This document shows, piece by piece, positions 871 through 52,188 of a stretch of DNA of 64,000 nucleotides. A program made the position numbers and the translations under genes. This stretch comes from a virus, in the IMG/VR virus record IMGVR_UViG_3300044820_000144, positions 51,592-115,591 of that record, one strand, 5' to 3'. Below the pieces are notes generated by a model that was not told where the DNA came from, ran no database searches, and saw nothing but the letters and a program-made list of their open reading frames with translations. Each line of letters begins with the position of its first letter. Position 1 is the stretch's first letter.

Positions 871-940
871 CTGCTCTCGCGCGCACCACGTTCCGATGCG
901 ACGTCACGCATCACGCACGCATTCCCCACGGAGGTGGACC

Positions 941-3607
941 TTGGTAGCCCTTGTCGAGCCGGACGAGGAGGAAAGATACCTGCTGGCGATCCTCGATTCC
1001 CCGGACGGGATCGACCTCGCCGAATTCGTCATCCACGACGCCCGCAACGCCGACGGCTGCTACCGGTTGTACGACTACCAGTGGCCGTGGTTCGCGAACC
1101 GGGAAGTCCTGCAGATCGAGCAGGGCGGGCGTAACACAGGTAAAACTGAGTCAGTTAAGTTGAGAAGTATCGCGTTCCCGTTCTACCACCCCGGCAAGGG
1201 CATGCTCCTGACCGCGCCCGAGCTGAACCACCTGCGCCCCCTCACCGACGAGGTCGAGCGGATGCTGCTGTCCACCCGGATCGTGCGCGAGATGATGCCC
1301 GGCGGGAAGAGCGCCGGCATCGCCCGCCAACCCCACTGGCAGGTCCGGTTCAAGAACGGCGCGACCATCGTGTCCCGTCTGCCGAACAAGGACGGCAAGG
1401 GCGTCAAGGGTTGTATCGCTGCAAATACGCTGGTTATGACCCGTCGCGGCCACATTCCTGTGCAGGAGGTCGTCGTCGGCGACCAGGTCCTTACCCACAA
1501 GACCCGCTGGCGGCCGGTCACTGCGACGTTCGCGTTCGACGGCGGGGAAGGCCTGCAGGTGAAGGGATCCGGTCACCGCGGGCTCGTCGTCTCCGACTCG
1601 CACGCCTTCTACGGACGACGCAACTCCAACCCGCAGCGCACCCGCAATCTCTCGGACCCGATGTGGGTCGACGCCGTCAGCCCCGAGCTGACCCGCTGGT
1701 ACTGGGCCACCCCCACCTCGTTGCCCGACGACAAGGACGGCGATGCCCCTCGGGTGGACGTGGCCCTCGCGGGCGCCTACGTCGCCGACGGACACATCGC
1801 TCGACGCGGCGACAAGCCGGAACGCCTGGTCTTCACCGACTCGTGGGACGACCTTGCGCGATTGGCCTCAATGGCCCGAATGGGGGGCTACAACCCAGGG
1901 CTGTACCCGCACCCGGACCACCCCAAGACGACCGGCCACCTGGAGATCTGCTCCCGCGAGCTGGCCGCCTGGGTCCTGGAGCACTTCGGCGAGCACGCGG
2001 ACGCGAAGCATCTGCCCGTGTGGCTGCTCGGCGCACCCGAGATGCTGCGGCGGGACTTCTGGGACGCCTACTGCGCCGGTGACGGCCACTGGGAACCGGC
2101 GCGTCAACGCTGGACCGTCAGCACCGCGAGCCGGCGCCTGGCCTGCGACCTGAAGCTCCTGGCGGCCGGTCTCGGCTACGACACCGGCCTGTCCTGGGTC
2201 GACCCGAAGGTCACGCAGATCGCCGGCCGCGAGCTGAAGGCCCCCGCGAAGAGGTCCTACCGTGTCACCGCCGTCCGTCGTGGCCACAAGATCGTCGATG
2301 ACGGGCATGCCTGGGGGAAGATCTCGTCGGTCACCCGGGTCGAGGTCCCGAGCTTCCACGACCTGGCCGTCGAGGAGGACCACTCCTACGTCGCCGAGGG
2401 CGTCGTCCAGCACAACCAGCACGTCGTGAACCTGGAGCTGGACGAGGCGCAGGACTACCCGCCCGCCGGGTGGAAGGAAGTCGTCGAGACCCTGAACCGC
2501 GGAGACCCCGACGCCATGTGGCGCTGCCACGGCGTCAGCAGGGGAGTGCGGGACTCGTTCTTCGACAAGTCCCAGCCGGGCTCGGGGTGGAAGGTCCACC
2601 GCCCGATGGCGATGAACCGGCCCTCCTGGGCGAAGGAGGAAAGGGACTCCAAGATCGTCGAGTACGGCGGGTCCCGGCAGGCCGTGGATTACCGCCGCAA
2701 CATCTACGGCGAGCACGGCGACGCCGCGAACTCCGTCTTCGTCCTGGCCAAGCTGATGGCCACCGTGGACCTGGACGAAGGGTCGATCTACAACACCGAC
2801 GTCTACTCCTGCACGAAGATCGAATACGAGCGGTTCCCGGCCGGTGCGACCGACGACGAGCGCGCCGCCATGATGCACGGCTGGATCCAGATCCCCGGCG
2901 AACACTTCACCGGCTACTCCCAGCGCATCGTCAACCGCGAGGTCGGGTCCCCGCGCGGCTACACCGCCTACTGGGGCGGCATGGACGTCGGCGTCACCAA
3001 CCACCCCAGCGAGATCCTCATCTTCGGCCAGCGGACCGGCACCGAGTTCCTGGAGCTGCTCACCCGCGTGCAGATGCACCGCATCAACACCGACGACCAG
3101 CTGCTCGTGGTCCAGCGGATGTTCGAGATCTACGGCGAAAAATTGCGCTTCGGGATTGACAAGACCGGCGTCGGGTTCCCGCTGTGGGACCAGCTGACCC
3201 GCCGGTCCTTCGGCGACCGGGTCTACGGGTTCGGCTTCAGCGAGAAGCGGGTCGTCGCCATCGAGGACCGCGACCTGGAAGCCGGGGAGACGATGAAGGA
3301 CCTGGCGAAGATGCGGAACATGGTCGAGGCGTCCACCGACTGGCTGCGCAACGACTACGTGGACGCCAAGAAGTTCCGCCTGCCCTACGACCGTGAGGTC
3401 CTCATCGAGTTCCAGGGGCAGACGTACACCGTCATGCGCGACACCGGCGACCCCTACGGCATGCGCCGACAGTTCGCCGGCGGCAGCTTCCACACCCTGG
3501 ACGCCGCGAAGGTCGCCGTCGCGACCAAGCACATCCCGCCGCTGGAGGCCCTCCTGGATGCCAAGCCGGCCCAGGGACAGGTCTTCGACGTGTTCATGGG
3601 CGCGTGA
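941..3607 (+). CDS. terL: Terminase large subunit, intein-containing
   Basis: GGAGG then TTG at 941; Walker A GGRNTGKT, Walker B LELDEAQD, nuclease motifs GMDVG, IDKTGVG, HTLDA. Confidence 0.92.
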   Translation: MVALVEPDEEERYLLAILDSPDGIDLAEFVIHDARNADGCYRLYDYQWPWFANREVLQIEQGGRNTGKTESVKLRSIAFPFYHPGKGMLLTAPELNHLRPLTDEVERMLLSTRIVREMMPGGKSAGIARQPHWQVRFKNGATIVSRLPNKDGKGVKGCIAANTLVMTRRGHIPVQEVVVGDQVLTHKTRWRPVTATFAFDGGEGLQVKGSGHRGLVVSDSHAFYGRRNSNPQRTRNLSDPMWVDAVSPELTRWYWATPTSLPDDKDGDAPRVDVALAGAYVADGHIARRGDKPERLVFTDSWDDLARLASMARMGGYNPGLYPHPDHPKTTGHLEICSRELAAWVLEHFGEHADAKHLPVWLLGAPEMLRRDFWDAYCAGDGHWEPARQRWTVSTASRRLACDLKLLAAGLGYDTGLSWVDPKVTQIAGRELKAPAKRSYRVTAVRRGHKIVDDGHAWGKISSVTRVEVPSFHDLAVEEDHSYVAEGVVQHNQHVVNLELDEAQDYPPAGWKEVVETLNRGDPDAMWRCHGVSRGVRDSFFDKSQPGSGWKVHRPMAMNRPSWAKEERDSKIVEYGGSRQAVDYRRNIYGEHGDAANSVFVLAKLMATVDLDEGSIYNTDVYSCTKIEYERFPAGATDDERAAMMHGWIQIPGEHFTGYSQRIVNREVGSPRGYTAYWGGMDVGVTNHPSEILIFGQRTGTEFLELLTRVQMHRINTDDQLLVVQRMFEIYGEKLRFGIDKTGVGFPLWDQLTRRSFGDRVYGFGFSEKRVVAIEDRDLEAGETMKDLAKMRNMVEASTDWLRNDYVDAKKFRLPYDREVLIEFQGQTYTVMRDTGDPYGMRRQFAGGSFHTLDAAKVAVATKHIPPLEALLDAKPAQGQVFDVFMGA
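1412..2416 (+). mobile_element. Intein (335 aa) with LAGLIDADG homing endonuclease
   Basis: Block A CIAANTLVMTRRGHIPVQEV; LAGAYVADG and FWDAYCAGDG endonuclease motifs; block F/G FHDLAVEEDHSYVAEGVVQHN. Confidence 0.93.
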
Positions 3608-3999: not shown

Positions 4000-4368
4000 A
4001 TGCAGTTCGAGGTGGAAGGCACCCAGGACGCCGGCTATGTCGACGGACTGGTGCCCGAAGTCGCGGCAGAGCTGGCATGGGGAGCCCTTGTCAGCCGCCA
4101 GGCCGTCGAGGAAGAGATCGACCTCATGCTCCGCACCGTCCGCGGCTTCTGGCAGTTCGAGCCCGACGCCGTCGCCAAGCTGATCCAGGCGATGAGCGCC
4201 CGGTGCACCGAGTTGTGCGTCCACCTGCACCGCCTCGAAGGCCGCAGGGAGTGGAAACAGGTGCGCACCCAGCAGGTCGAACGGCTCCTGGCGGAACTGG
4301 ACCGGCAGTGGAAGCTCGCCAGCCGTCTGATTGCTGTCCGGCAACAGGACATCGATCTCTCACGATGA
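4000..4368 (+). CDS. Hypothetical helical protein upstream of portal
   Basis: ATG at 4000 after GGAG; phage-like codon usage. Confidence 0.75.
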   Translation: MQFEVEGTQDAGYVDGLVPEVAAELAWGALVSRQAVEEEIDLMLRTVRGFWQFEPDAVAKLIQAMSARCTELCVHLHRLEGRREWKQVRTQQVERLLAELDRQWKLASRLIAVRQQDIDLSR

Positions 4369-4378
4369 GAGGCCGTCC

Positions 4379-6187
4379 GTGTTCGAAGTCGAAGCCACCT
4401 CCGAGCTGACCCTGCCCGACGGGCGACCGCTCGGCCTGATGAACACCACCAGCATCGGCAACGGGGAAATCGCCGGCGACCCGGAGGTCCAGCGACTCGC
4501 CCGCGAAATCAGCCGCTGGGTCGACCTGTCCCGCAACAGCCCCACCGCCCACGGCGGCATGTTCGACCGGCAGGCGTACACCCCGCCCAACAACCCGTAC
4601 GACCAGATCCGCACCGCCAAGATGGCGCTGATCGAAGACGACGTCGTCGGCACCGTCGCCGAAGCCACCGAAGCCATCGCCTTCCGGGGCGGCCTGAAGT
4701 GGGAAGCGCCCGACCCCGACGACGCCGACGTGTTCAACCAGATGGCCGCCGACCTGAACCTCGACGACCAGATCCGCACCATGTGGCGCGAGGCGTTCGC
4801 GACCGACCAGTTCGTGTGCGCGAAGCTGTGGGGCTGGAGCGAGTACACCGTCCGCGGGAAGACCACCAAGGGCAACCAGCGGAAGAAGAAGTACCGGATC
4901 TGGTGCCCCCAGCGTCTGGTCATGCTGAACAGCGAGCACGTCGTCCCCCTGGGCATCGGGCCGCTGCGCACCGACCGGCTGGCGTGGAACGCCAACCCCG
5001 CCGACATCGTCAACTTCGACGCCGCCAGCCGCGGCGACATCATCGACCCGCTCATGGTCCAGTTCTTCAAGGGCCTCTACACCCCGTCCGACCCCGAGCG
5101 GACCGAGTTCCAGCAGTGGCACATCTACGGTGACCGGCTCCTGGAGATGGACCCCGCCTGGGTGTTCCGCCACTGCCACACCAAGCCCGACTACCTGAAG
5201 TTCCCCGACCTGCGGTTGCGGTCGGTGTTCCCGCTGCTGGATCTGAAGCGGCAGCTGCGCGCCAGCGACCGGGCCGCCCTCATCGGCGCCGCGAACTACA
5301 TCCTGCTCATCCGCAAGGGCGACAAGGAGACCCCGGCCACCCAGGACGAGGTGAACCACCTCAAGCAGAATTACAACTTCCTGGCCAAGCTCCCGGTCAT
5401 CATCACCGACCATCGCCTCACGATTGACGTGATCGCTCCGAAGCTCGACTTCGTCCTCAAGCCCGAGGCGTACGACGTCCTGGACCAGAAGATCCTCACC
5501 CGGACCCTGTCGGCGTTCCTGCCACCCAAGGTCCGCACCCTGGACGCCCCGTCCTGGAACGACGTGATCTGCAACTCGGTCCAGTCCCGCCGCCACATGA
5601 TCGCCCGGACGCTGGAGCAGGAGATCGCCCGCGCCGTCGTCAACCACCCCAAGAACGCCGGCGTCTTCGCCCCCGGCGGACGGCCCTCCCTGGTCTTCAC
5701 CCCCCGCACCGTGTCCGTCGGCACCGACGACGCCACCATGCAGGCCCTGCTGGCCCTGCGCACCCAGCGTGAAGTCAGCCGCGACACCATCCTCGAACAC
5801 CTCGGCCTGGACGAAGCGACCGAAGCCCAGCGCATGGAGCTGGAAGACGAGCTGTACGACGACATCTTCAAGACCCAGATCCCGTTCGCCTCCCCCGGCA
5901 TGGGCGGTGTCGCCAACGGCGGCGCAGGGCAGGGCCAGACCCCCAACGGCCGCAACGACAGCCCCGGCGCCCCCGGCGCCTCAGCCACCGTCAAGCCCGC
6001 CGCGAAGAAGGCCGCCCCGGCCGCACCGGCCAAGAAGACCGCCACCCCCAACGGCACCCCCGAGGCACCCAAGGTGTCCGGCGGACGCGGGGGACGCCCC
6101 GTCGGCGGCGGATCGAGCGCCAAATCGCCTGCGGCGACGGCACGGCCGAAGACCAGCAACGGCAACCCGTCGACGAAGGAGAGGTAA
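4379..6187 (+). CDS. Portal protein (low-complexity Pro/Ala/Lys C-terminal tail)
   Basis: Size (~600 aa), position after terminase and before protease/scaffold, helical portal-like composition. Confidence 0.8.
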   Translation: MFEVEATSELTLPDGRPLGLMNTTSIGNGEIAGDPEVQRLAREISRWVDLSRNSPTAHGGMFDRQAYTPPNNPYDQIRTAKMALIEDDVVGTVAEATEAIAFRGGLKWEAPDPDDADVFNQMAADLNLDDQIRTMWREAFATDQFVCAKLWGWSEYTVRGKTTKGNQRKKKYRIWCPQRLVMLNSEHVVPLGIGPLRTDRLAWNANPADIVNFDAASRGDIIDPLMVQFFKGLYTPSDPERTEFQQWHIYGDRLLEMDPAWVFRHCHTKPDYLKFPDLRLRSVFPLLDLKRQLRASDRAALIGAANYILLIRKGDKETPATQDEVNHLKQNYNFLAKLPVIITDHRLTIDVIAPKLDFVLKPEAYDVLDQKILTRTLSAFLPPKVRTLDAPSWNDVICNSVQSRRHMIARTLEQEIARAVVNHPKNAGVFAPGGRPSLVFTPRTVSVGTDDATMQALLALRTQREVSRDTILEHLGLDEATEAQRMELEDELYDDIFKTQIPFASPGMGGVANGGAGQGQTPNGRNDSPGAPGASATVKPAAKKAAPAAPAKKTATPNGTPEAPKVSGGRGGRPVGGGSSAKSPAATARPKTSNGNPSTKER

Positions 6188-8073
6188 TGGTGAGCCTGGA
6201 CCGCGAGCGGCTCCTGCAGACCTACGCGCCCCGGCTCGCCGCCAGGGTCCAGACGCAGGGTGCCGTGGACTACCTGGCGTCGCTCGGCTACGACCCGGAT
6301 CAGGCCGCTGCCGCCCTCGACCGGCTCACGGCTGCGCGTGACGCGGTCAACGCCGTCATCCCCGACCTGCCCCGCACCGGGACCAGCGCCGGCGACGCCG
6401 TCAGCCTCCTGACCGACATGGTGCAGCAGATCAACGACAGGGACGAGCAGGACGAACAGGAGGAGAAGGACGACGACCAGCCCACCGGGGTCATGGTCGC
6501 CTTCTACCCCGACCCCGAGACCGCCGCCGCCCTGGCCCTGTCCGACGCCGACTGCGAGATGGCCCGGGACATGCCCGGCGGGACCGCGACGACGCCCAAG
6601 GGCATCCCGATGCGCTCACGGCCCATGCTGATGCCCAAGGCCGGCGTCACCATGGGCGAGCCCGTCGACCCCGGCGACGACCCGGTCGGCGGTCACGAGG
6701 ACGGCCCCGAGGAGAAGGACGACCAGGGCGGCGTGGACGCCGAGGACGCCGACGAGCTGCACCTCACCCTGGTCTTCCTCGGCACGGCCGGCGCCGACGT
6801 CCCCGAGTCGCTGCTGCCCACGCTGCTGTCCACCGTGAAGGGCTGGGCCGCGACCACCCCACCGATCACCGGGTACACCTCCGGGATCGGCGTCTTCGCC
6901 AACCCCGGCGAGACCGTCACCTACGCCAGCGTCGACTGCCCCGCCCTGCCCGCCGCCCGGCAGGAGCTGGTCCGCCTGCTGACCGGCGAGGGCCTGCCCG
7001 TCTCGGCGACCCACGGGTTCACCCCGCACATCACCCTGGCCTACGGCGACGCCCGCGACGCCGAGGTCTCCCGGCTGCCGCTGGTCTTCTCCACCGTCTC
7101 CGTGGTGTACGCCGGGCAGCGCACGGACTTCCCGATGGGCCCGGCCCCCGCCGTCACCGGCCCGCCCCAGGTCGACGACGTCGCCGAACGCGCCCGGGTG
7201 GTCGAGCGGGTGGTCGAACGGGTGGACGAGTGGACCATTCCGACCCTGACCGCCGCCGGAGCGAGCGTCACGGTCCCGGCCGAGCCCTGGCACGCCGTGG
7301 TCACCGACATCGGGGGCCGCACCTTCCTCACCGCCCCCGCCACCACCTCCACCGTCGGCCCCGAGCTGGCCGCGTGGGCCGGCGCCCCGAACCCGAACAA
7401 ACACATGCTGTGGATGCAGGGCCGGTTCGTCGGCGGGGACCGGCCCAACAAGAACGGCGCCCTCTGGTCGTCCGCCGACCTGGAGATGGGCAAGGCGACC
7501 GTCAGCCACGGGCCGCTGAACTGGCTGCACGAGGATCGGCACGTCATCGGCACCATCGCCGACGCCAAGTTCGTCCCCGCCCCCGGCGGCGGCGGCCTGC
7601 AGGTCGCGATGGACGGGATGGGCGGCGCCCCGGCCTGCCAGGACCCGCACATCGCCGCCCTGTCGGTGATCTGGCGGTGGATCTACCCCGACGAGGCGTC
7701 CATCGTGCAGATGGCCTCCGACGCCCAGGTGCTCGCCTACTCGATGGAATGCATCTCCGAGGCCATCCAGTGCGTAGGCGACAGCGGCTGTCAGCAGACC
7801 TACTCCTACCTGGAGTACGCCCGCGGTCAGGCGTGCGACCACCTGCAGCAGCGCGCCTCGGTCCGGCGACTGGTCAACCCGACATTCCTCGGCGGCGCCG
7901 TCATCGTCCCCCCGACCCGTCCCGGGTGGGCCGAAGCCGACGCCACCGTGCTGAAGCAGGCCGCCGCCATGGCCGAGAAGGCGTACGAACAGGCCGGGCG
8001 TCCCGACATCCCCGCCGCCACGTGGGACCAGATGATGGCCGGAGTGCTGACGTTCGCTCAGGGCGCCCAGTGA
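6187..8073 (+). CDS. Fusion of 2H phosphoesterase (2'-5' RNA ligase/Acb1-like) and putative capsid maturation protease
   Basis: HLT (6760) and HIT (7027) 2H motifs; C-terminal NWLH...AYSMEC...FLGGAVI protease-like region; position between portal and scaffold. Confidence 0.75.
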   Translation: MVSLDRERLLQTYAPRLAARVQTQGAVDYLASLGYDPDQAAAALDRLTAARDAVNAVIPDLPRTGTSAGDAVSLLTDMVQQINDRDEQDEQEEKDDDQPTGVMVAFYPDPETAAALALSDADCEMARDMPGGTATTPKGIPMRSRPMLMPKAGVTMGEPVDPGDDPVGGHEDGPEEKDDQGGVDAEDADELHLTLVFLGTAGADVPESLLPTLLSTVKGWAATTPPITGYTSGIGVFANPGETVTYASVDCPALPAARQELVRLLTGEGLPVSATHGFTPHITLAYGDARDAEVSRLPLVFSTVSVVYAGQRTDFPMGPAPAVTGPPQVDDVAERARVVERVVERVDEWTIPTLTAAGASVTVPAEPWHAVVTDIGGRTFLTAPATTSTVGPELAAWAGAPNPNKHMLWMQGRFVGGDRPNKNGALWSSADLEMGKATVSHGPLNWLHEDRHVIGTIADAKFVPAPGGGGLQVAMDGMGGAPACQDPHIAALSVIWRWIYPDEASIVQMASDAQVLAYSMECISEAIQCVGDSGCQQTYSYLEYARGQACDHLQQRASVRRLVNPTFLGGAVIVPPTRPGWAEADATVLKQAAAMAEKAYEQAGRPDIPAATWDQMMAGVLTFAQGAQ

Positions 8074-21104: not shown

Positions 21105-22619
21105 TTGAGCACGTACCCCGCCTCCCTCGACGTCTTCTCGGTGAAGGCCGAAGGGCCCGGCAACTACCTGTACGCCAAGGACGTCAACGACATCACCACG
21201 GCGATCGAGGCGATCCAGACCACCCTCGGTATCGAGCCCGCCGGTGCCTTCCCCACCCTCAAGGACGCCGTCGATCAGCTCGTCACCGACGTCGGCGACA
21301 TCGACACCACCATCGCTGAACTCGGCGACACCGTCATCTCCCTGTCGAGCACCGTCACCGGCCTGGAAGCCGACGTCCTCGCGATCGGCGACGGCCCCAC
21401 CGGCGCCACCGGACCCGCAGGGGCGACCGGCCCCGTCGGCGTCACCGGCCCTACCGGCGCGAGCGGCCCGACCGGCCCCGCCGGATCGACCGGCCCCGTA
21501 GGTGCCACCGGGGCGACCGGCCCGGCAGGAACCGACGGCGCAGCCGGTGCCGACGGAGCGACGGGACCGACCGGGGCCACCGGCCCGGCCGGAGCTGACG
21601 GACTCGACGGGGCCACCGGACCCGCCGGAGCGACCGGCGCCACAGGCGCGACGGGTCCCGCCGGGGCCGACGGCGCACCTGGGGCCGACGGCGCCGCAGG
21701 CCCAACAGGAAGCACCGGTCCCGCGGGCGCCACCGGCCCGGTCGGTTCAACCGGCCCCGCGGGGGCCACGGGCCCGGCAGGCGTCACGGGCGCCACCGGC
21801 GCAACGGGACCGCTCGGCGCCACCGGCGTCACCGGCGCCACCGGTCCGCAGGGCGTCGCCGGGCAGACCTGGCAGATCGTCGGATCCGTCCCGACCGTCG
21901 CCGACCTCACCGCCCTTGAAAGCGGAGCCAGCATCGGCGACGGCTACATCGTCGACGAGAACGGTGACCTCTACGTCTTCTCCGGCTCCACCTTCACGTT
22001 CGTCGACATCGGCCAGATCGTCGGCCCGACCGGCCCTGCAGGCGCCACCGGACCGGTCGGCTCCACGGGTCCCATCGGTGCCACCGGTCCGGCAGGAGTA
22101 ACAGGCCCGGCCGGTGCAACCGGGCCCATCGGTGCCACCGGCCCTGCAGGCGCAGACGGCGCCGTGGGGGCGACCGGACCTGTCGGAGCCACCGGACCCA
22201 TCGGGGCCACCGGCCCTGCCGGCGCGACGGGCCCCGCCGGCGCCTCGGGAGCGGTGGGGGCGACCGGCCCGGCGGGCGCCACGGGACCCGCCGGAGCTGA
22301 CGGTTCGGCGGGTCCCGCAGGCGCCACCGGCGTCACCGGCCCGGCCGGCGCCGCGGGCCCGACGGGTGCCACCGGGCCCGCTGGGGCCGTCGGCGCCACC
22401 GGCCCAGCAGGGGCAACAGGACCCGTTGGTGCCACCGGGCCCGCGGGCGCCGACGGAGCGATCGGCGCGACCGGAGCCACGGGCCCCACGGGCGTCGGCG
22501 CGACCGGTGCGACGGGCCCGGCGGGTGCGACCGGTGCGACGGGACCCGTGGGCGCGACCGGTGCCAGTTCTTCCGGCGGTGCCACGTGGGCACACACCTT
22601 CAACATGATGGGCGGCTGA
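21105..22619 (+). CDS. Collagen-like (G-X-T/G-P-A) fibre protein 1
   Basis: Two long Gly-X-Y tracts split by a ~55-aa globular insert; N-terminal YPASLD.F domain. Confidence 0.85.
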
Positions 22620-42342: not shown

Positions 42343-43470
42343 ATGACCGTCGACGCGAGCTTCCTCTACGACATCGGCGTCCTCCAGCTCGGCACCTACG
42401 GAGGCATGGGCGTCCAGCCCGGCATCGGTCTACCCGGTGGCGGTCAGCTGACCGCCACCGGGGTCAACCCCAACCCGACCCGCAGCACCACCGTCACCCT
42501 GTCCGGCGGGGACCAGGAGAGCGCCACCGGGACCCGGCAGGCCACCACCACGCTGACCCTGTCCGGGGGCGGGAACCTTGGCACCGACTCACCCCGCCCG
42601 GTCGTGCTCTTCCTGTCCGGGGGCGGGGCCCCGGCGCTGGTCGCCGGCCCGGAGGCCGGCTTCCACCTCCCACTGGTCCAGCTGTTCATCGAGGCCCCCG
42701 CCCTCGCCCTCGGCGCCCCGCCGGCGCCCACGCCGGCCGGGCTGATCCTCACCGTCGTCGACACCACCCTGGACATCTCCCCGGGCAGCCTCACCGTGTT
42801 CGTCGCGAACGGCACCCCCGACGAGGAATGCGCCTTCACCGTCGTGGACGGAGCGATTTCCACACCGGCGATATCTACCACCTTCGACGACGCGGGAGCC
42901 GTCGCCGGCCTCTCCGTTCCCATCGACGTCGTCGCCGAAGGCACCTACAGCCTCGTCGTCACCGACATGACCACGGCCCTGACCGCTTCGGCCGATTTCA
43001 GCGTGGCCGCCGTGGCGACAACGCAAACGATTGGAGTGCCCGTGACCACGCCGCCGCCGAGTGTCCAGCCGGGAACCGGCGTGCGGAAGTGGGTGTTCCA
43101 GGACCCGGTGACCGGCGAGACGTACCACTTCCCGATCAACCCGAACAAGATGAACTCGCCGTTCCCGCCCAAGAAGATCACCTTCTTGGCGACCACCAGC
43201 ATCAACGGGGCCAAGCTGGCGTTCGAGGGACAGTCCGCGCCCGTGGACTGGCAGTTCTCCGGGACGCTGTTCACCAAGGCGCAGTACGACGCGTTCGTCG
43301 CCTGGACGGGCAAGCGGAACCGTATCTGGATCACCGATCACTATGGTCGCGCGTGGCTGTGCTACCTCACCCACTTCGACCCCCAGGCCCGCCGTGACGT
43401 CGTGCACCCCTGGTGCCACGAATGGTCGATGAGCGCCCTCATCTTCGAGGGCCCGGTGACCCCGGTATGA
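42343..43470 (+). CDS. Putative distal tail (Dit-like) protein with N-terminal repeat/Ig extension
   Basis: C-terminal YHFPINPN...WQFSGT...ITDHYGR.W...HFDP; N-terminal TLSGG repeats like the 1900-aa protein. Confidence 0.6.
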   Translation: MTVDASFLYDIGVLQLGTYGGMGVQPGIGLPGGGQLTATGVNPNPTRSTTVTLSGGDQESATGTRQATTTLTLSGGGNLGTDSPRPVVLFLSGGGAPALVAGPEAGFHLPLVQLFIEAPALALGAPPAPTPAGLILTVVDTTLDISPGSLTVFVANGTPDEECAFTVVDGAISTPAISTTFDDAGAVAGLSVPIDVVAEGTYSLVVTDMTTALTASADFSVAAVATTQTIGVPVTTPPPSVQPGTGVRKWVFQDPVTGETYHFPINPNKMNSPFPPKKITFLATTSINGAKLAFEGQSAPVDWQFSGTLFTKAQYDAFVAWTGKRNRIWITDHYGRAWLCYLTHFDPQARRDVVHPWCHEWSMSALIFEGPVTPV

Positions 43471-46220
43471 GGATCGTCCCCCCGACCCTGACCGACACCT
43501 GGCTGGGCGGGGAGTTCACCGGCGACCGTCGCCCGATGGCCCGGGTCACGATGCAGCGCATCCAGATCAAGCTGCAGAGCGTCGACCCGAAGCGCCTGTT
43601 CGCCAGCATGATGTTCGGTCAGGGCGACCAGCCCCGCGAGATGCCCAACGTGAAGAGCGTCGAATGGGACCGCTCCACCGGCTCCGACGTCGCCACGTGC
43701 ACCATCGTGCTGTACAACACCGCCGCACTGCAGCTGGGAACCCAGCCCGTCCCCTCGGGCGACTTCGACCAGCCCGGCTTCTACACCTACAACTACGGAT
43801 CCACCAAGTGGGGACCCAACCGGTGGGGGGCCGTCGCGAACGACTGGACCGACTTCATCATCCCCGACCGGCTCGTCCGCACCTACGAGGGATACGGATT
43901 CGACTCCACCGTCGCACCCGAGAAGGACCCCCACCTGGTCCAGACCGGGACCTGGCTCATCGACGACGTCGAGTTCAGCACCGACGGCCTCATCACCGTC
44001 ACCTGCCGGGACGTCGGCAGACTCCTGCTGGACCACATCATGTTCCCCCCGGTGATCCCCCCGGCCGCCTACCCGCTGATGTGGGACCCCCCGCACCAGG
44101 TCGACAATCCGCCCGTCGTGTCGCCCGTCGGTCCCAGCTGGAGACCCACCTACGGGACCGACTCCGGGCGGCCCTACTTCGGGCGCAACGGCCTGGTCCA
44201 CGGCCACCGGCCCTCCGACGCGTTCGACCGCTCGACCTCCACGTACTGGCTCAGCGTCGGGAACGCCCAACCGAAAGCCGGGTACGCGTATGAGTTCATC
44301 GAAGGCAACTGCGGCGGCAAGACGGTCTCCTCTGTCACCGTGAAGACGTGGGGCGGCCCCTACCGCGCCTTCCTGTCCATCAAGGTCAAGGGCAAGTGGC
44401 TCGGCACCACCACCATCCCCTACGACCCGAACAACCCCGTCAGCGCGCCCAACGGGTCGAACATCACCTACTCCCTCGTCGCCACCGCCGGCCGGGAGAC
44501 GAACACCACCTTCACCCTGAAGACGCCGGTCGCCAAGGTCGACGCCATCCGCATCACCTTCACCGACCTGTGCAACTCCGGGATCGGTCCCTGGCGGTAC
44601 CGCGCCGGCGTGCGTGACATCCAGTGCACCAGCCAGCACCAGACCACCACTCCCGGCGGCACCCACACCGTCGGCGATTACAACGACTACACCGACATCG
44701 TGAAATACCTGTTGGCCTGCGGAGGATTCCACTGGCCGCGCACCGCGATGGCATTCGAGACGCTCTCCGACGGTACGAAGGTCGTCCTGTCGCCGCCCAC
44801 CGACGACTCGTTCCTGAAGTCCGGGCGCGTCTGGGGTGACCTGGAGATGAGCGGCACCACAGCCATCTACGTGTACGGCGACGTTGGCAGGCTCGGCAGC
44901 GACTGGGACAAGAAACCACTCATGGACGGGATCGCCTACATTCGCGACCTGCTCGGTTTCGTGTTCTTCATCGACGAGACCGGCGGCGCCGTGTTCCGGC
45001 TGCCCAACTGGTTCTCCCTCGGCAACTGGGTCGGCGACCTCGCCGCCAACGCCGGCTACCTCGCCGACCCCACCGGGCTTCGCAACTACATCGTCCAAGA
45101 GGGCGGCAAGTATCCCGTCGTCGCCGGCGACAACTGGATCACGGTCGCGGTGAAGCTGGGCGTCACCGAAGCCGAACTGCTCACCGCCAACGCCGCACGC
45201 GGTGGCGGTGCCCTCGTCGTCGGCGAGGCCCTGGTCATTCCGCTGAACGGGTCCTACACCTACACCGTCCTGGCGGGCGACACGTGGGCCACGGTCGCGG
45301 TCAAGCTGGCCGTCACCGAGACGGAACTGCACGCGGCGAACTCGGCCCGCGGCTCCGGGGCCCTCACCCCCGGGGAGCACCTGGCCCTGCCCGCGCCCGA
45401 CACGTGGGCGACCGCCGCGGCCCACGCCGGTGTCACGGAGGCGGTCCTGCGCGACGCGAACTCGCTGCGCGGGTCCAGTCCGCTGCGCCCCGGGGAGGCG
45501 CTGGTCGTTCCCGCCCTGCCGACCTCCGACACGGCGTCCTACACCGTCCGGGCCGGCGACAACTGGATCACTGTGGCGGCCCAGTTCGGCATCACCGAAG
45601 CCGCCCTGCTCGCGCTCAACGCCACCCGCGGCGGAGGCGCCCTCGCCATCGGAGAGCACATCGTCGTCCCGACGATCCACCCGATCATCACGATCGACGA
45701 GCGACAGACGCTGGTCGGGCTCCGCGCGAAGATCAGCTCGAAGAACATCCGCGAGTCCATCTTCGTCGCCAACACCAACGGCCAGTACGGCGCCGTCGCC
45801 AAGGGCTTCCACCCCACCAACGAGCCCATGGGCTTCCGCCGCGTCGGGGGTTGGACCGACCAGAACTTCGCCTCCACCGCGGAGGCCCAGCGCATGGCCG
45901 AGATGATCACCATCCAGCAGCAGGTCACCTACCGGACCGACACCATCACCATCGTCGCCAATCCCGCCATCCAGATCGACGACCAGGTACGCGTCTGGGA
46001 GCGGATCACCGGCGAGGAGTTCGTCCAGTACGTCAAGGGCATCAAGTCCAAGAACGACCTGGAGTCGGGGGAGTGGACCTACGACTTGGACACCCATTGG
46101 CTCGGCAAGGACCCGCTGCAAGCCTGGGGGGTCGACATCTCGCAGGTGAGCACCGAGACGGCCATGTTCCTGGACCTGCTCAAGGCCAACCGGCCCCTCC
46201 CCACCGGATTGGGGCAGTGA
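43467..46220 (+). CDS. Tail hub / Tal-like protein with four LysM domains
   Basis: LLDHIMFPP and LRDLLGFVFFIDETG hub-like segments; four GD.W.TVA..GVTEA.L..AN..L..GE.L..P repeats. Confidence 0.78.
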   Translation: MRIVPPTLTDTWLGGEFTGDRRPMARVTMQRIQIKLQSVDPKRLFASMMFGQGDQPREMPNVKSVEWDRSTGSDVATCTIVLYNTAALQLGTQPVPSGDFDQPGFYTYNYGSTKWGPNRWGAVANDWTDFIIPDRLVRTYEGYGFDSTVAPEKDPHLVQTGTWLIDDVEFSTDGLITVTCRDVGRLLLDHIMFPPVIPPAAYPLMWDPPHQVDNPPVVSPVGPSWRPTYGTDSGRPYFGRNGLVHGHRPSDAFDRSTSTYWLSVGNAQPKAGYAYEFIEGNCGGKTVSSVTVKTWGGPYRAFLSIKVKGKWLGTTTIPYDPNNPVSAPNGSNITYSLVATAGRETNTTFTLKTPVAKVDAIRITFTDLCNSGIGPWRYRAGVRDIQCTSQHQTTTPGGTHTVGDYNDYTDIVKYLLACGGFHWPRTAMAFETLSDGTKVVLSPPTDDSFLKSGRVWGDLEMSGTTAIYVYGDVGRLGSDWDKKPLMDGIAYIRDLLGFVFFIDETGGAVFRLPNWFSLGNWVGDLAANAGYLADPTGLRNYIVQEGGKYPVVAGDNWITVAVKLGVTEAELLTANAARGGGALVVGEALVIPLNGSYTYTVLAGDTWATVAVKLAVTETELHAANSARGSGALTPGEHLALPAPDTWATAAAHAGVTEAVLRDANSLRGSSPLRPGEALVVPALPTSDTASYTVRAGDNWITVAAQFGITEAALLALNATRGGGALAIGEHIVVPTIHPIITIDERQTLVGLRAKISSKNIRESIFVANTNGQYGAVAKGFHPTNEPMGFRRVGGWTDQNFASTAEAQRMAEMITIQQQVTYRTDTITIVANPAIQIDDQVRVWERITGEEFVQYVKGIKSKNDLESGEWTYDLDTHWLGKDPLQAWGVDISQVSTETAMFLDLLKANRPLPTGLGQ

Positions 46221-50715: not shown

Positions 50716-52188
50716 TTGGCTCTGGTAATTCGAACGACCGGGCTGGAACAGTACGCTCCCGGAGGGGAAGCACGCCTCAAGCTGCTCACCATCGGCGGCC
50801 CCGGCGTCGGCAAGACCCGCTTCGCCTCCTACTTCCCCCGCCCCATCTACGCCGACTGCGAGGCCGGCCTCGCCTCCGTCGCCGACCGCAACGTCCCCTA
50901 CGTCTCGGTCAACTCCAGCAGCGACATGCTCGACCTGCTCGCCCACCTCAAGCTCGAATGCCGCCTGCCCAAGGACAAGCGCACCTACGACACCGTCGTC
51001 ATCGACACCCTGGACGCCTACCAGCGCAAGCTCAAGAACGAATGGATGGAGACCAACAAGGCACCCGCCTTCACCGGCTGGGAGGCATGGGGATTCGTCG
51101 GACAGAAGATGAGCCTGCTGTTGACCAGGCTGCTGAACCTCGACATGAACGTCATCGTCAACGTCCACTACAAGGACAAGACCACCAAGGACGACGACAG
51201 CGGCAAGGAAACCCACGAGCTGATGCTCCAGCTCCAGGGCGAGATCTCCGACACCGCGTTCAACGACTTCGACCTCGTCGGCTGGATGGGCACCTACTGG
51301 GAGACCGAGGCCGGCGAGCGCGTCCAGAAGCGCGGCCTGACGTTCAAGCCCACCCCGGACAAGCCGTTCCTCAAGGACCGCCTGCACGTCACGCCCACCT
51401 GGATGGAGATCCGGTTCGCCGACAGCGACTACGAGCAGCTGTTCACCCGCATCACCGACCGCCTCGCCGACCTGGCACCCACCCAGACCGTCGGGGAGAT
51501 CCCCACCGCCGACCCCAACGCCGTCATCCCGTCCGGCGTCGTGCGCCCCGAGGCGGTCGCCTCCGGCGCCCTGCCCCCGCAGCAGCCGACCGAGCTGCCC
51601 CTGGCCCAGCTGGACAAGCCGGCCCTGGCGAAGAAGGCCCGCGACCTCGGCGTCACCACCCTGCCCGACGGGTCACCGATCAAGGGCAACACCCTCAAGG
51701 CCGAGCTGATCGCCGCCATCGAGCACCACCAGGCCCAGCCCGCAGCCGAGTCCCCTCAGCCCGCCGCGGAGCCCGCCGCGGAGCCCGCCGCGGAGCCCGC
51801 CGCGGAGGCGAACACCGAGACGCCGGCTGCTGCACCGCCCACGGCCAACCCCAGCCGGGTCACCGTGCCCCGACAGAACAGCGCACCTGACATCGAGCGG
51901 GTCACCGAGGGCCTGGTGGACAAGCGCACCGGGGAGCTGCTGGACGAGCCCGACACCGAGGCCGCCATCGCGACGGTGCAGAAGGAGCTGGGCGGGCGGG
52001 TCATCGCCCAGCCCGTCGACAAGCCCGCCGAGCCGAAAGCTGCGCCGGCATCCACCGCGCCGACCGTCGTCTGCGAGGACTGCGGAAAGGACCTCGCGGG
52101 AGAACGACAGGACTACGTGAAACTCGCGTGGATCAAGTACCGGAAGCGGCTGTGCGAATCCGATTACCAGACCCGCAAGAACGGCTGA
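50716..52188 (+). CDS. AAA_24 / Sak4-like ATPase recombinase with C-terminal Zn finger
   Basis: GGPGVGKT, VVIDTLD, DLVG; CEDC...LCESD; AAAAGGAG RBS before TTG. Confidence 0.82.
   Translation: MALVIRTTGLEQYAPGGEARLKLLTIGGPGVGKTRFASYFPRPIYADCEAGLASVADRNVPYVSVNSSSDMLDLLAHLKLECRLPKDKRTYDTVVIDTLDAYQRKLKNEWMETNKAPAFTGWEAWGFVGQKMSLLLTRLLNLDMNVIVNVHYKDKTTKDDDSGKETHELMLQLQGEISDTAFNDFDLVGWMGTYWETEAGERVQKRGLTFKPTPDKPFLKDRLHVTPTWMEIRFADSDYEQLFTRITDRLADLAPTQTVGEIPTADPNAVIPSGVVRPEAVASGALPPQQPTELPLAQLDKPALAKKARDLGVTTLPDGSPIKGNTLKAELIAAIEHHQAQPAAESPQPAAEPAAEPAAEPAAEANTETPAAAPPTANPSRVTVPRQNSAPDIERVTEGLVDKRTGELLDEPDTEAAIATVQKELGGRVIAQPVDKPAEPKAAPASTAPTVVCEDCGKDLAGERQDYVKLAWIKYRKRLCESDYQTRKNG
51760..51807 (+). 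repeat. 12-bp tandem repeat x4 (PAAE linker)
   Basis: CCCGCCGCGGAG four times. Confidence 0.9.

Follow-up and report, generated by a model that had tools for sequence, protein, structure and literature searches.

The DNA analysed here is a 64,000-nucleotide stretch, hereafter the window, spanning positions 51,592 to 115,591 of the IMG/VR virus record IMGVR_UViG_3300044820_000144. The record is 136,218 bp long and 95% complete by CheckV estimate, and the window has a G+C content of 70%. Near its start lies a large terminase (TerL) gene interrupted by an intein whose splicing motifs are intact, except that the first residue of the C-extein (+1) is glutamine and not cysteine, serine or threonine. 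The G+C content of the intein, overall and at third codon positions, matches that of the phage. The features of the gene are given in Table 1.

Table 1. Features of the intein-bearing terminase gene, in window coordinates.
Feature	Coordinates	Strand	Basis or remark
Large terminase (TerL) gene with one intein	941..3607	+	Open reading frame; the public-collection copy P0003 has 888 amino acids
N-extein, N-terminal part of the ATPase domain, ending ...KGVKG (Gly-1)	941..1411	+	Alignment to P0010
Walker A P-loop, GGRNTGKT	1124..1147	+	Sequence reading
Intein, 335 amino acids, HINT splicing domain with inserted LAGLIDADG homing endonuclease	1412..2416	+	Pfam, profiles, model
Cys1 (TGT), N-terminal nucleophile	1412..1414	+	Sequence
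Block B, GLVVSDSHAFY (Ser61-x-x-His64)	1580..1612	+	Motif
First LAGLIDADG motif, LAGAYVADGH	1766..1795	+	Motif
Second LAGLIDADG motif, YCAGDGHW	2069..2092	+	Motif
Block F, FHDLAVEEDHSYVAEG	2354..2401	+	Motif; core reads HDLAVEEDHSY
Blocks F and G, FHDLAVEEDHSYVAEGVVQHN, ending in His334-Asn335	2354..2416	+	Motif
His334-Asn335 (CAC AAC)	2411..2416	+	Sequence
Gln+1 (CAG) and His+2 (CAC), start of the C-extein	2417..2422	+	Sequence; Gln codon 2417-2419
C-extein, remaining ATPase domain and nuclease domain	2417..3604	+	Alignment to P0010
Walker B, LELDE	2432..2446	+	Five residues past the intein junction

The longest open reading frame at the locus (896..3607, plus strand) starts at ATG 896 and encodes 903 amino acids. 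Because of a Shine-Dalgarno sequence, GGAGG, at 930-934 and the N-termini of homologs (MVALVEPDEE), the true start is probably TTG 941, which would give a protein of 888 residues. Where the intein is referred to as residues 173-507, the count is that of the 903-residue frame. The N-extein is 81% identical to residues 1-157 of P0010, an intein-free relative, and the C-extein 85% identical to its residues 158-554. Since the extein could not be annotated with Pfam or PHROG, the identity of the host protein was taken from its fold. P0010 itself returned no family match in Pfam or PHROG and had a weak profile match in the PDB (4zni, expectation value (E) 0.04). The structure of P0010, which is 86% identical to the window exteins, was modelled with a predicted local distance difference test score (pLDDT) of 89. 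The model matched T4 gp17 (3cpe, E 3e-17) and the TerL proteins of HK97, D6E, Sf6 and P74-26 (E 3e-17 to 1e-9) and, additionally, terminase nuclease domains including those of G20c and SPP1; the Walker A region gave a weak profile match to the P-loop region of P74-26 TerL. The modelled protein therefore answers to the description of a TerL, with an ASCE ATPase bearing Walker A and Walker B and an RNase-H-like nuclease fold. Among intein-free TerLs (alignment A1), G67 and K68 of Walker A and D166 and E167 of Walker B are invariant. Walker B forms strand E162-165 of the model; the surface loop just before it, which links it to a core strand of the ATPase, holds the insertion point.

The C-extein is single-copy in the 136-kb phage record. 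No second terminase was found there using Pfam Terminase_6N, TerL_ATPase and Terminase_3 or the C-extein as query, a search to which a divergent, Pfam-invisible TerL could be blind. The intein-bearing gene appears from these searches to be the sole large terminase of the phage.

The intein was matched by the Pfam families LAGLIDADG_3, Hint_2 and Intein_splicing and by the profiles of the solved inteins PI-PkoII, TliVMA, gp41-1 and PI-SceI (E 5e-19 to 1e-10). Its junctions, KGVKG/CIAANT...GVVQHN/QHVVNLELDE (slashes mark the boundaries), lie in frame with the open reading frame 896..3607. A model built from 66 aligned inteins reached a pLDDT of 95 and a predicted template modelling (TM) score of 0.93. 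Its best fold match was the TliVMA intein (7qsu, E 6e-19, TM 0.73), followed by PI-SceI, PI-PfuI and PI-PkoII. In the alignment of these 66 inteins with their flanks (A2, whose numbering is used here), the block B His and the terminal Asn are invariant, as are G126, A130 and G132 of the first LAGLIDADG motif and Y225 and G228 of the second, in which D229 and G230 are nearly so. Furthermore, residues 173-507 are precisely the span covered by alignments to inteins from unrelated phage proteins, most of them annotated as DNA methylases. The first-pass annotation, made from the letters of the window, had placed an intein within 1412-2419 with these junctions, Cys1, His-Asn, both LAGLIDADG motifs and Gln at +1, all of which the sequence and Pfam bear out.

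Measured against the definition of a class 1 intein, the window element has the HINT fold with blocks A, B, F and G, the nucleophilic Cys1, the terminal His-Asn and an in-frame position in a conserved protein whose empty alleles correspond to the joined exteins. What it lacks is Cys, Ser or Thr at +1, where Gln stands. For protein splicing itself the evidence is indirect, coming from purifying selection, persistence and mobility. It does not fit class 3 either, as Cys1 is present and block F, FHDLAVEEDHSYVAEG, contains no Cys and hence no WCT motif. The first 24 residues of the C-extein contain no Cys, Ser or Thr.

That glycine and glutamine are the native neighbours of the uninterrupted protein, as the first-pass annotation supposed, was evident from intein-free homologs. 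About 150 of these read KGVKG-x-H-x5-DE at the insertion site (site 157), where x is Q in 81, M in 24, I in 19, T in nine, V in five, A in five, S in four and L in four; Thr, Ser and Cys make up just 8%. At the DNA level, the intein-free P0010 reads AAG GGT/CAA CAC and the window AAG GGT/intein/CAG CAC. The TerL of GX15bay, a cultured phage, is also intein-free and reads GVKG-I-HPIWLELDEAQ. Gly-1 and Lys-2 are invariant in intein-free and intein-bearing homologs alike, and so is His+2, both in all 66 aligned inteins with flanks and in intein-free TerLs. These alignments establish G/Q as the native junction.

Other explanations of the Gln codon were considered and rejected. A misplaced junction was discounted because pairwise alignment of every long homolog to the intein-free reference put the insertion after reference residue 157, so that the homologs do not shift the boundary, and because the vicinity offers no other Asn with Cys, Ser or Thr after it. 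Similarly, a sequencing error at +1 is excluded: no codon for Ser, Thr or Cys can be reached from CAG by fewer than two base changes, and Gln also occurs in 29 independent intein-bearing and about 80 intein-free homologs.

Two large protein searches yielded 261 relatives, 81 of which, all metagenomic, carry an intein at the same site. The +1 residue of these 81 inteins is Q in 29, T in 20, I in 15, M in five, V in four, S in four, L in two, N in one and C in one, such that 56 of the 81 have a non-nucleophilic residue (Q, I, M, V, L or N). Residue 1 is Cys in 65 and Ser in 16, and the C-terminal pair is His-Asn in 77 of the 81. A maximum-likelihood tree of 69 full-length site-157 inteins resolved three well-supported groups: a Q(/M/I/V) clade of 35, in which the window intein sits, an I/V/L/M clade of 13-14 and a T/S/C clade of 15. 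Support for the two clades without a nucleophile was 99/86 and 100/96. Both must be old and diverse, since the median terminal branch in the tree is 0.53 substitutions per site.

Within the non-nucleophile group the splicing residues are retained as well as in any family of inteins: Cys or Ser at position 1, Ser61 and His64 in 100%, and D323, H324, S325, Y326, H334 and N335 each in 86-98%, with His334 and Asn335 at 98% each. Endonuclease-less mini-inteins of 129-137 residues with Q or I at +1 (P0177, P0203 and P0213) keep all four splicing blocks; because they cannot home without an endonuclease, they must be tolerated by their hosts. The first-pass annotation had treated the missing +1 nucleophile as the peculiarity of a single odd gene. 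The survey argues otherwise: it characterises two large clades among the inteins of this site (56/81), which makes the case much stronger than one gene could.

Other sites in the same TerL family provide internal controls. At least nine further intein sites were found, at reference positions of approximately 48, 68, 167, 193, 219, 272, 351, 407 and 495/517, and every resolved intein but one at these sites has Cys, Ser or Thr at +1. The sharpest of these controls is site 167, located ten residues downstream of the window insertion. Uninterrupted alleles read DE-A/G/M-QD there (A in 111, G in 41, M in 18 and S in eight), whereas all 19 interrupted alleles read DE-intein-S(C)-QD. Neighbouring alleles at site 157 show a corresponding contrast. 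For host alleles of the T/S/C clade, the nearest intein-free neighbours have I, A, V or L in nine of 15 cases; P0166, for example, has S at +1 and the intein-free P0254 has A, with 97% flank identity. For alleles with Q- or I-type inteins, 43 of 47 match non-nucleophilic neighbours (Fisher p 0.009). From this contrast it follows that the T/S/C clade brings or selects its nucleophile, whereas the other two clades would need none.

This Pfam-unrecognised TerL family is also an extreme hot spot for inteins, with at least ten distinct insertion sites among the homologs P0004-P0263 and single proteins that hold three or four inteins (P0129, 1861 amino acids; P0138, 1887 amino acids). The inteins at sites 68 and 407 begin with A, E or M and are therefore without a residue-1 nucleophile, as in class 2 or 3. 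In the window, a 45-nucleotide patch across Walker A (1131-1175, GRNTGKTESVKLRS) has 40% G+C and AT-rich synonymous codons in a genome of 70% G+C; the same patch in the intein-free P0010 has 63%. The patch coincides with the exact point, between GK and T or S, at which class-3-like inteins are inserted in relatives, and it may be a homing-site immunisation or a co-conversion scar.

The ratio of nonsynonymous to synonymous substitution rates (dN/dS) in the intein was 0.08 between P0075 and P0082 and 0.19 between the window and P0004, values which indicate that the intein is under purifying selection. P0075 and P0082 (L004 301-2910 and L005 301-2916) share 92% identity in the intein but 78-80% in the exteins, and dS is 0.52 in the intein against 1.5 and 0.79 in the exteins. 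As the intein is the more alike and has the lower dS, this pattern suggests a recent horizontal transfer of the intein between diverged terminase alleles, both with Gln+1. The distribution of the intein is sporadic and likewise looks horizontally transferred. Selection, the transfer pattern and the single TerL together point to a real, mobile intein in what is apparently the only terminase of the phage, in agreement with the first-pass view of a mobile intein in an essential gene.

With Gln encoded at 2417-2419 and no Ser, Thr or Cys at +1, canonical class 1 splicing, in which the N-extein is transferred to the +1 side chain, is impossible here, as had been anticipated from the window sequence. 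Nor can the +1 side chain be the nucleophile: with Q, M, I, V and L interchangeable at this position, it is irrelevant to the reaction. The Gln side chain was rejected as a substitute nucleophile on the same ground, M, I, V and L standing at +1 in sister inteins. Ser333, found in an SHN context in some relatives, was rejected as well; the window intein has Gln at that position, and branching on the intein itself could not leave the exteins ligated.

We propose that splicing could instead proceed by aminolysis. An N-S acyl shift at Cys1 would produce a thioester on the invariant and unhindered Gly-1; in ligation chemistry, no thioester residue is less hindered or more reactive than glycine. No branched intermediate would form. 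Asn335 would cyclise with the help of His334 and cut the C-terminal junction, thereby exposing the α-amine of Gln+1, which the intein would still be keeping in the active site. The α-amine would then attack the glycine thioester to form a native Gly-Gln peptide bond and release the intein. We speculate that the invariant extein His+2 may serve as general base, although it is equally invariant in intein-free terminases. There is a precedent in the type A bacterial intein-like (BIL) domains, for which PMC4031507 (citing Dassa 2004 and Aranko 2013) and PMC7664689 give as the proposed route a thioester, Asn cyclisation and attack of the freed amine on the thioester, with no +1 nucleophile. Among routes with a precedent, it alone would yield a native peptide bond. 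We judge there to be an even chance that the window element, a mobile intein of class 1 type, splices by aminolysis independently of a +1 side-chain nucleophile. Its anatomy, the native junction, conservation across the family, and selection together with mobility are shown; the chemistry and its efficiency are inferred. The broader proposition falls slightly short of even in our estimation: that both deep clades genuinely splice with any +1 residue by α-amine attack on the thioester, possibly aided by His+2, and constitute a fourth mechanistic class derived from T/S/C-dependent ancestors at the same TerL site.

Several observations weigh against aminolytic splicing. The support comes entirely from metagenome assemblies; a cultured phage with this intein was not found, the sole isolate match being the intein-free GX15bay. 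Nine of the non-nucleophile inteins start with Ser and not Cys, so that the freed amine would have to attack an oxoester, which reacts less readily. A search for clade-specific changes within the intein that might explain the loss of the nucleophile turned up none that could be told apart from phylogeny; the differences seen, Ser versus His at residue 333 and Asp versus Asn in block F, are confounded with it. Moreover, BILs mostly cleave, so that ligation may be inefficient, and one BIL spliced only after it was given a Cys at +1. Finally, the conservation of Cys1 and His-Asn would fit equally well with double cleavage without ligation, in which hydrolysis of the Gly-1 thioester and Asn cyclisation leave a non-covalent two-chain terminase. 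Residues 1-157, with Walker A, and the remainder, with Walker B and the nuclease, would fold while tethered by the intein and then stay associated. Double cleavage would need Cys1, the block B His and His-Asn as much as splicing does, and both BIL domains and +1-mutant inteins yield mainly cleavage products (PMC4031507, PMC7664689). In the model the insertion falls in a loop at the surface that joins two ATPase core strands, where a nick could be tolerated. However, no naturally split TerL was identified at this position in the family, and short matches such as P0185, whose sequence begins at +2, have the look of truncation at a contig end or of faulty gene calling. Were a nick harmless, the intein would gain little from keeping, in more than 50 diverged copies, the exact boundaries that restore the native G-Q junction, and the invariant Lys-2, Gly-1 and His+2 beside the active site suggest that the loop matters. 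We therefore consider a two-chain terminase unlikely, though it is the main rival.

The aminolytic route must also be set against three explanations that we find harder to credit. A covalent intermediate might form on another nucleophile, most plausibly the imidazole of His+2, the acyl-imidazole replacing the (thio)ester branch and being resolved, after Asn cyclisation, by transfer to the +1 α-amine. His+2 adjoins the scissile bond and is invariant in 66 of 66 aligned inteins with flanks, and such a route would make the +1 side chain irrelevant, in keeping with the occurrence of Q, M, I, V and L. Yet the residue is just as invariant in intein-free TerLs, such that terminase function explains its conservation; the T/S/C clade has the same His, and we found no precedent for such chemistry, which leaves this route improbable. 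Slow or condition-dependent processing could itself be the function, as a maturation timer or an environmental packaging switch. Nucleophile-less chemistry is expected to be slower and pH-sensitive, and inteins located in the active sites of ATPases have been suggested to have regulatory roles (PMC5050341). The sequence data give no sign of regulation, close relatives (P0010 and others) manage without the intein, and its sporadic, apparently horizontal distribution is that expected of a selfish element; we regard a switch as decidedly improbable. Lastly, the intein could be dead or dying, a non-splicing insertion in a phage that is defective or in a prophage remnant, or the +1 codon could be an artefact of assembly or sequencing. 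Either would be in keeping with a metagenomic record classed as linear and with the lack of an intein in any cultured relative. Against this stand the 29 independent Gln+1 copies and 56 non-nucleophile copies from many samples, the intein dN/dS of 0.08-0.19, the intact catalytic motifs of the extein, the approximately 95% completeness of a record in which no other TerL was found, and the presence of both CAG and CAA in intein-free alleles. These comparisons largely refute a dead element or artefact, which we hold to be very improbable indeed. The first-pass annotation had offered a non-canonical splicing route, a two-chain terminase and a conditional packaging switch. That a non-canonical route is required stands; splicing and a two-chain product are not separable by sequence, and nothing was found to support the switch.

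Taken together, the comparisons make it probable that host-protein maturation follows a non-canonical path throughout this lineage of mobile inteins. A large natural lineage of this kind in an essential gene would mean that the +1 rule is not absolute, and that BIL-type or new chemistry is efficient enough to sustain a virus. Nucleophile-independent splicing would also remove the obligatory Cys, Ser or Thr scar from intein-based protein engineering and offer a natural template for scarless protein ligation. With the T/S/C clade beside the Q and I clades at one site, how a new splicing mechanism evolves can be tested directly. Such elements will escape intein-finding pipelines in which Cys, Ser or Thr at +1 is a requirement.

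Elsewhere in the window, all on the plus strand, an open reading frame directly upstream of the terminase gene (310-870) may encode the small terminase subunit; the gene in the same position has an HTH_3/HTH_31 match in L006 and is annotated as a transcription factor in GX15bay. A 628-residue protein with a LigT / 2'-5' RNA ligase-type phosphoesterase domain (6187-8073) directly follows a putative portal gene (4331-6187), an arrangement seen likewise in L006. A collagen-repeat protein with seven Collagen stretches (21105-22619) is probably a fibre, and a 935-residue protein with LysM domains (43413-46220) probably has a cell-wall-binding or lysis function. A scan of named bacterial genomes matched four contigs of metagenome-assembled genomes and gave no host assignment.

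Comparison with known systems places the window element among inteins. With TliVMA, PI-SceI, PI-PkoII and the methylase intein of Pseudomonas phage Lana it shares the fold (TM 0.73 to 7qsu), blocks A, B, F and G, Cys1 and His-Asn, and like canonical LAGLIDADG inteins it has two LAGLIDADG motifs, an in-frame insertion at a conserved position close to an active site and empty alleles in relatives. The Lana intein is the closest match outside the terminase family, at 33% identity end to end. The intein query also aligned at full length, with 24% identity, to dmt methyltransferase genes of an Escherichia phage P1 record and of vB_EcoM-Ro157c2YLVW, which suggests intein-bearing dmt alleles in P1-like phages. 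Canonical class 1 inteins are followed by Cys, Ser or Thr (Lana, VVHN/C), whereas in the window intein and 55 relatives the C-extein begins with Q, I, M, V, L or N; with such a residue, the trans-esterification step that defines classes 1-3 cannot take place. Inteins without a residue-1 nucleophile are likewise natural variants that bypass one canonical step, but they still need Cys, Ser or Thr at +1, whereas in the window intein residue 1 is canonical and +1 is not. According to reviews, inteins of all known classes depend on Cys, Ser or Thr at +1, the non-mobile BIL domains being the sole exception (PMC4031507, PMC7664689). We found no report of a natural intein with a non-nucleophilic +1 residue in the searchable full-text literature, a scope that excludes subscription journals.

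The terminase inteins of mycobacteriophages and actinophages (Kelley et al. 2016, PMC5050341; Gosselin et al. 2025 preprint) also cluster in the ATPase domain by the P-loop and Walker B. They are described there as splicing readily in reporters and having active endonucleases, and a term search of the two papers returned no non-nucleophilic +1 residue. Their hosts belong to the Pfam-recognisable Terminase_1 and Terminase_6 families, whereas the TerL family of the window has no Pfam or PHROG match and has an insertion site at which most inteins are without the +1 nucleophile. Type A BILs (Amitai 2003; Dassa 2004; Cth BIL4, 2LWY, Aranko 2013) share with the window intein a HINT domain, an N-terminal Cys, His-Asn and the lack of a +1 nucleophile. 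BILs, however, are small, have no homing endonuclease, lie in variable regions of non-essential bacterial proteins without empty allelic sites and mostly cleave. The window element is a mobile, endonuclease-bearing element of 335 residues with conserved LAGLIDADG motifs, fixed at a conserved site adjoining Walker B in an essential phage enzyme with empty alleles. Nor is it closer to BILs than to inteins in sequence: 2LWY matched with E 1.5e-4 and over the N-terminal part only, and the nearest natural relatives are the T/S/C inteins at the same site and the methylase inteins. Judged by its anatomy, its insertion behaviour and its nearest relatives, the window element is thus an intein, and one that departs from classes 1-3 at the +1 position.

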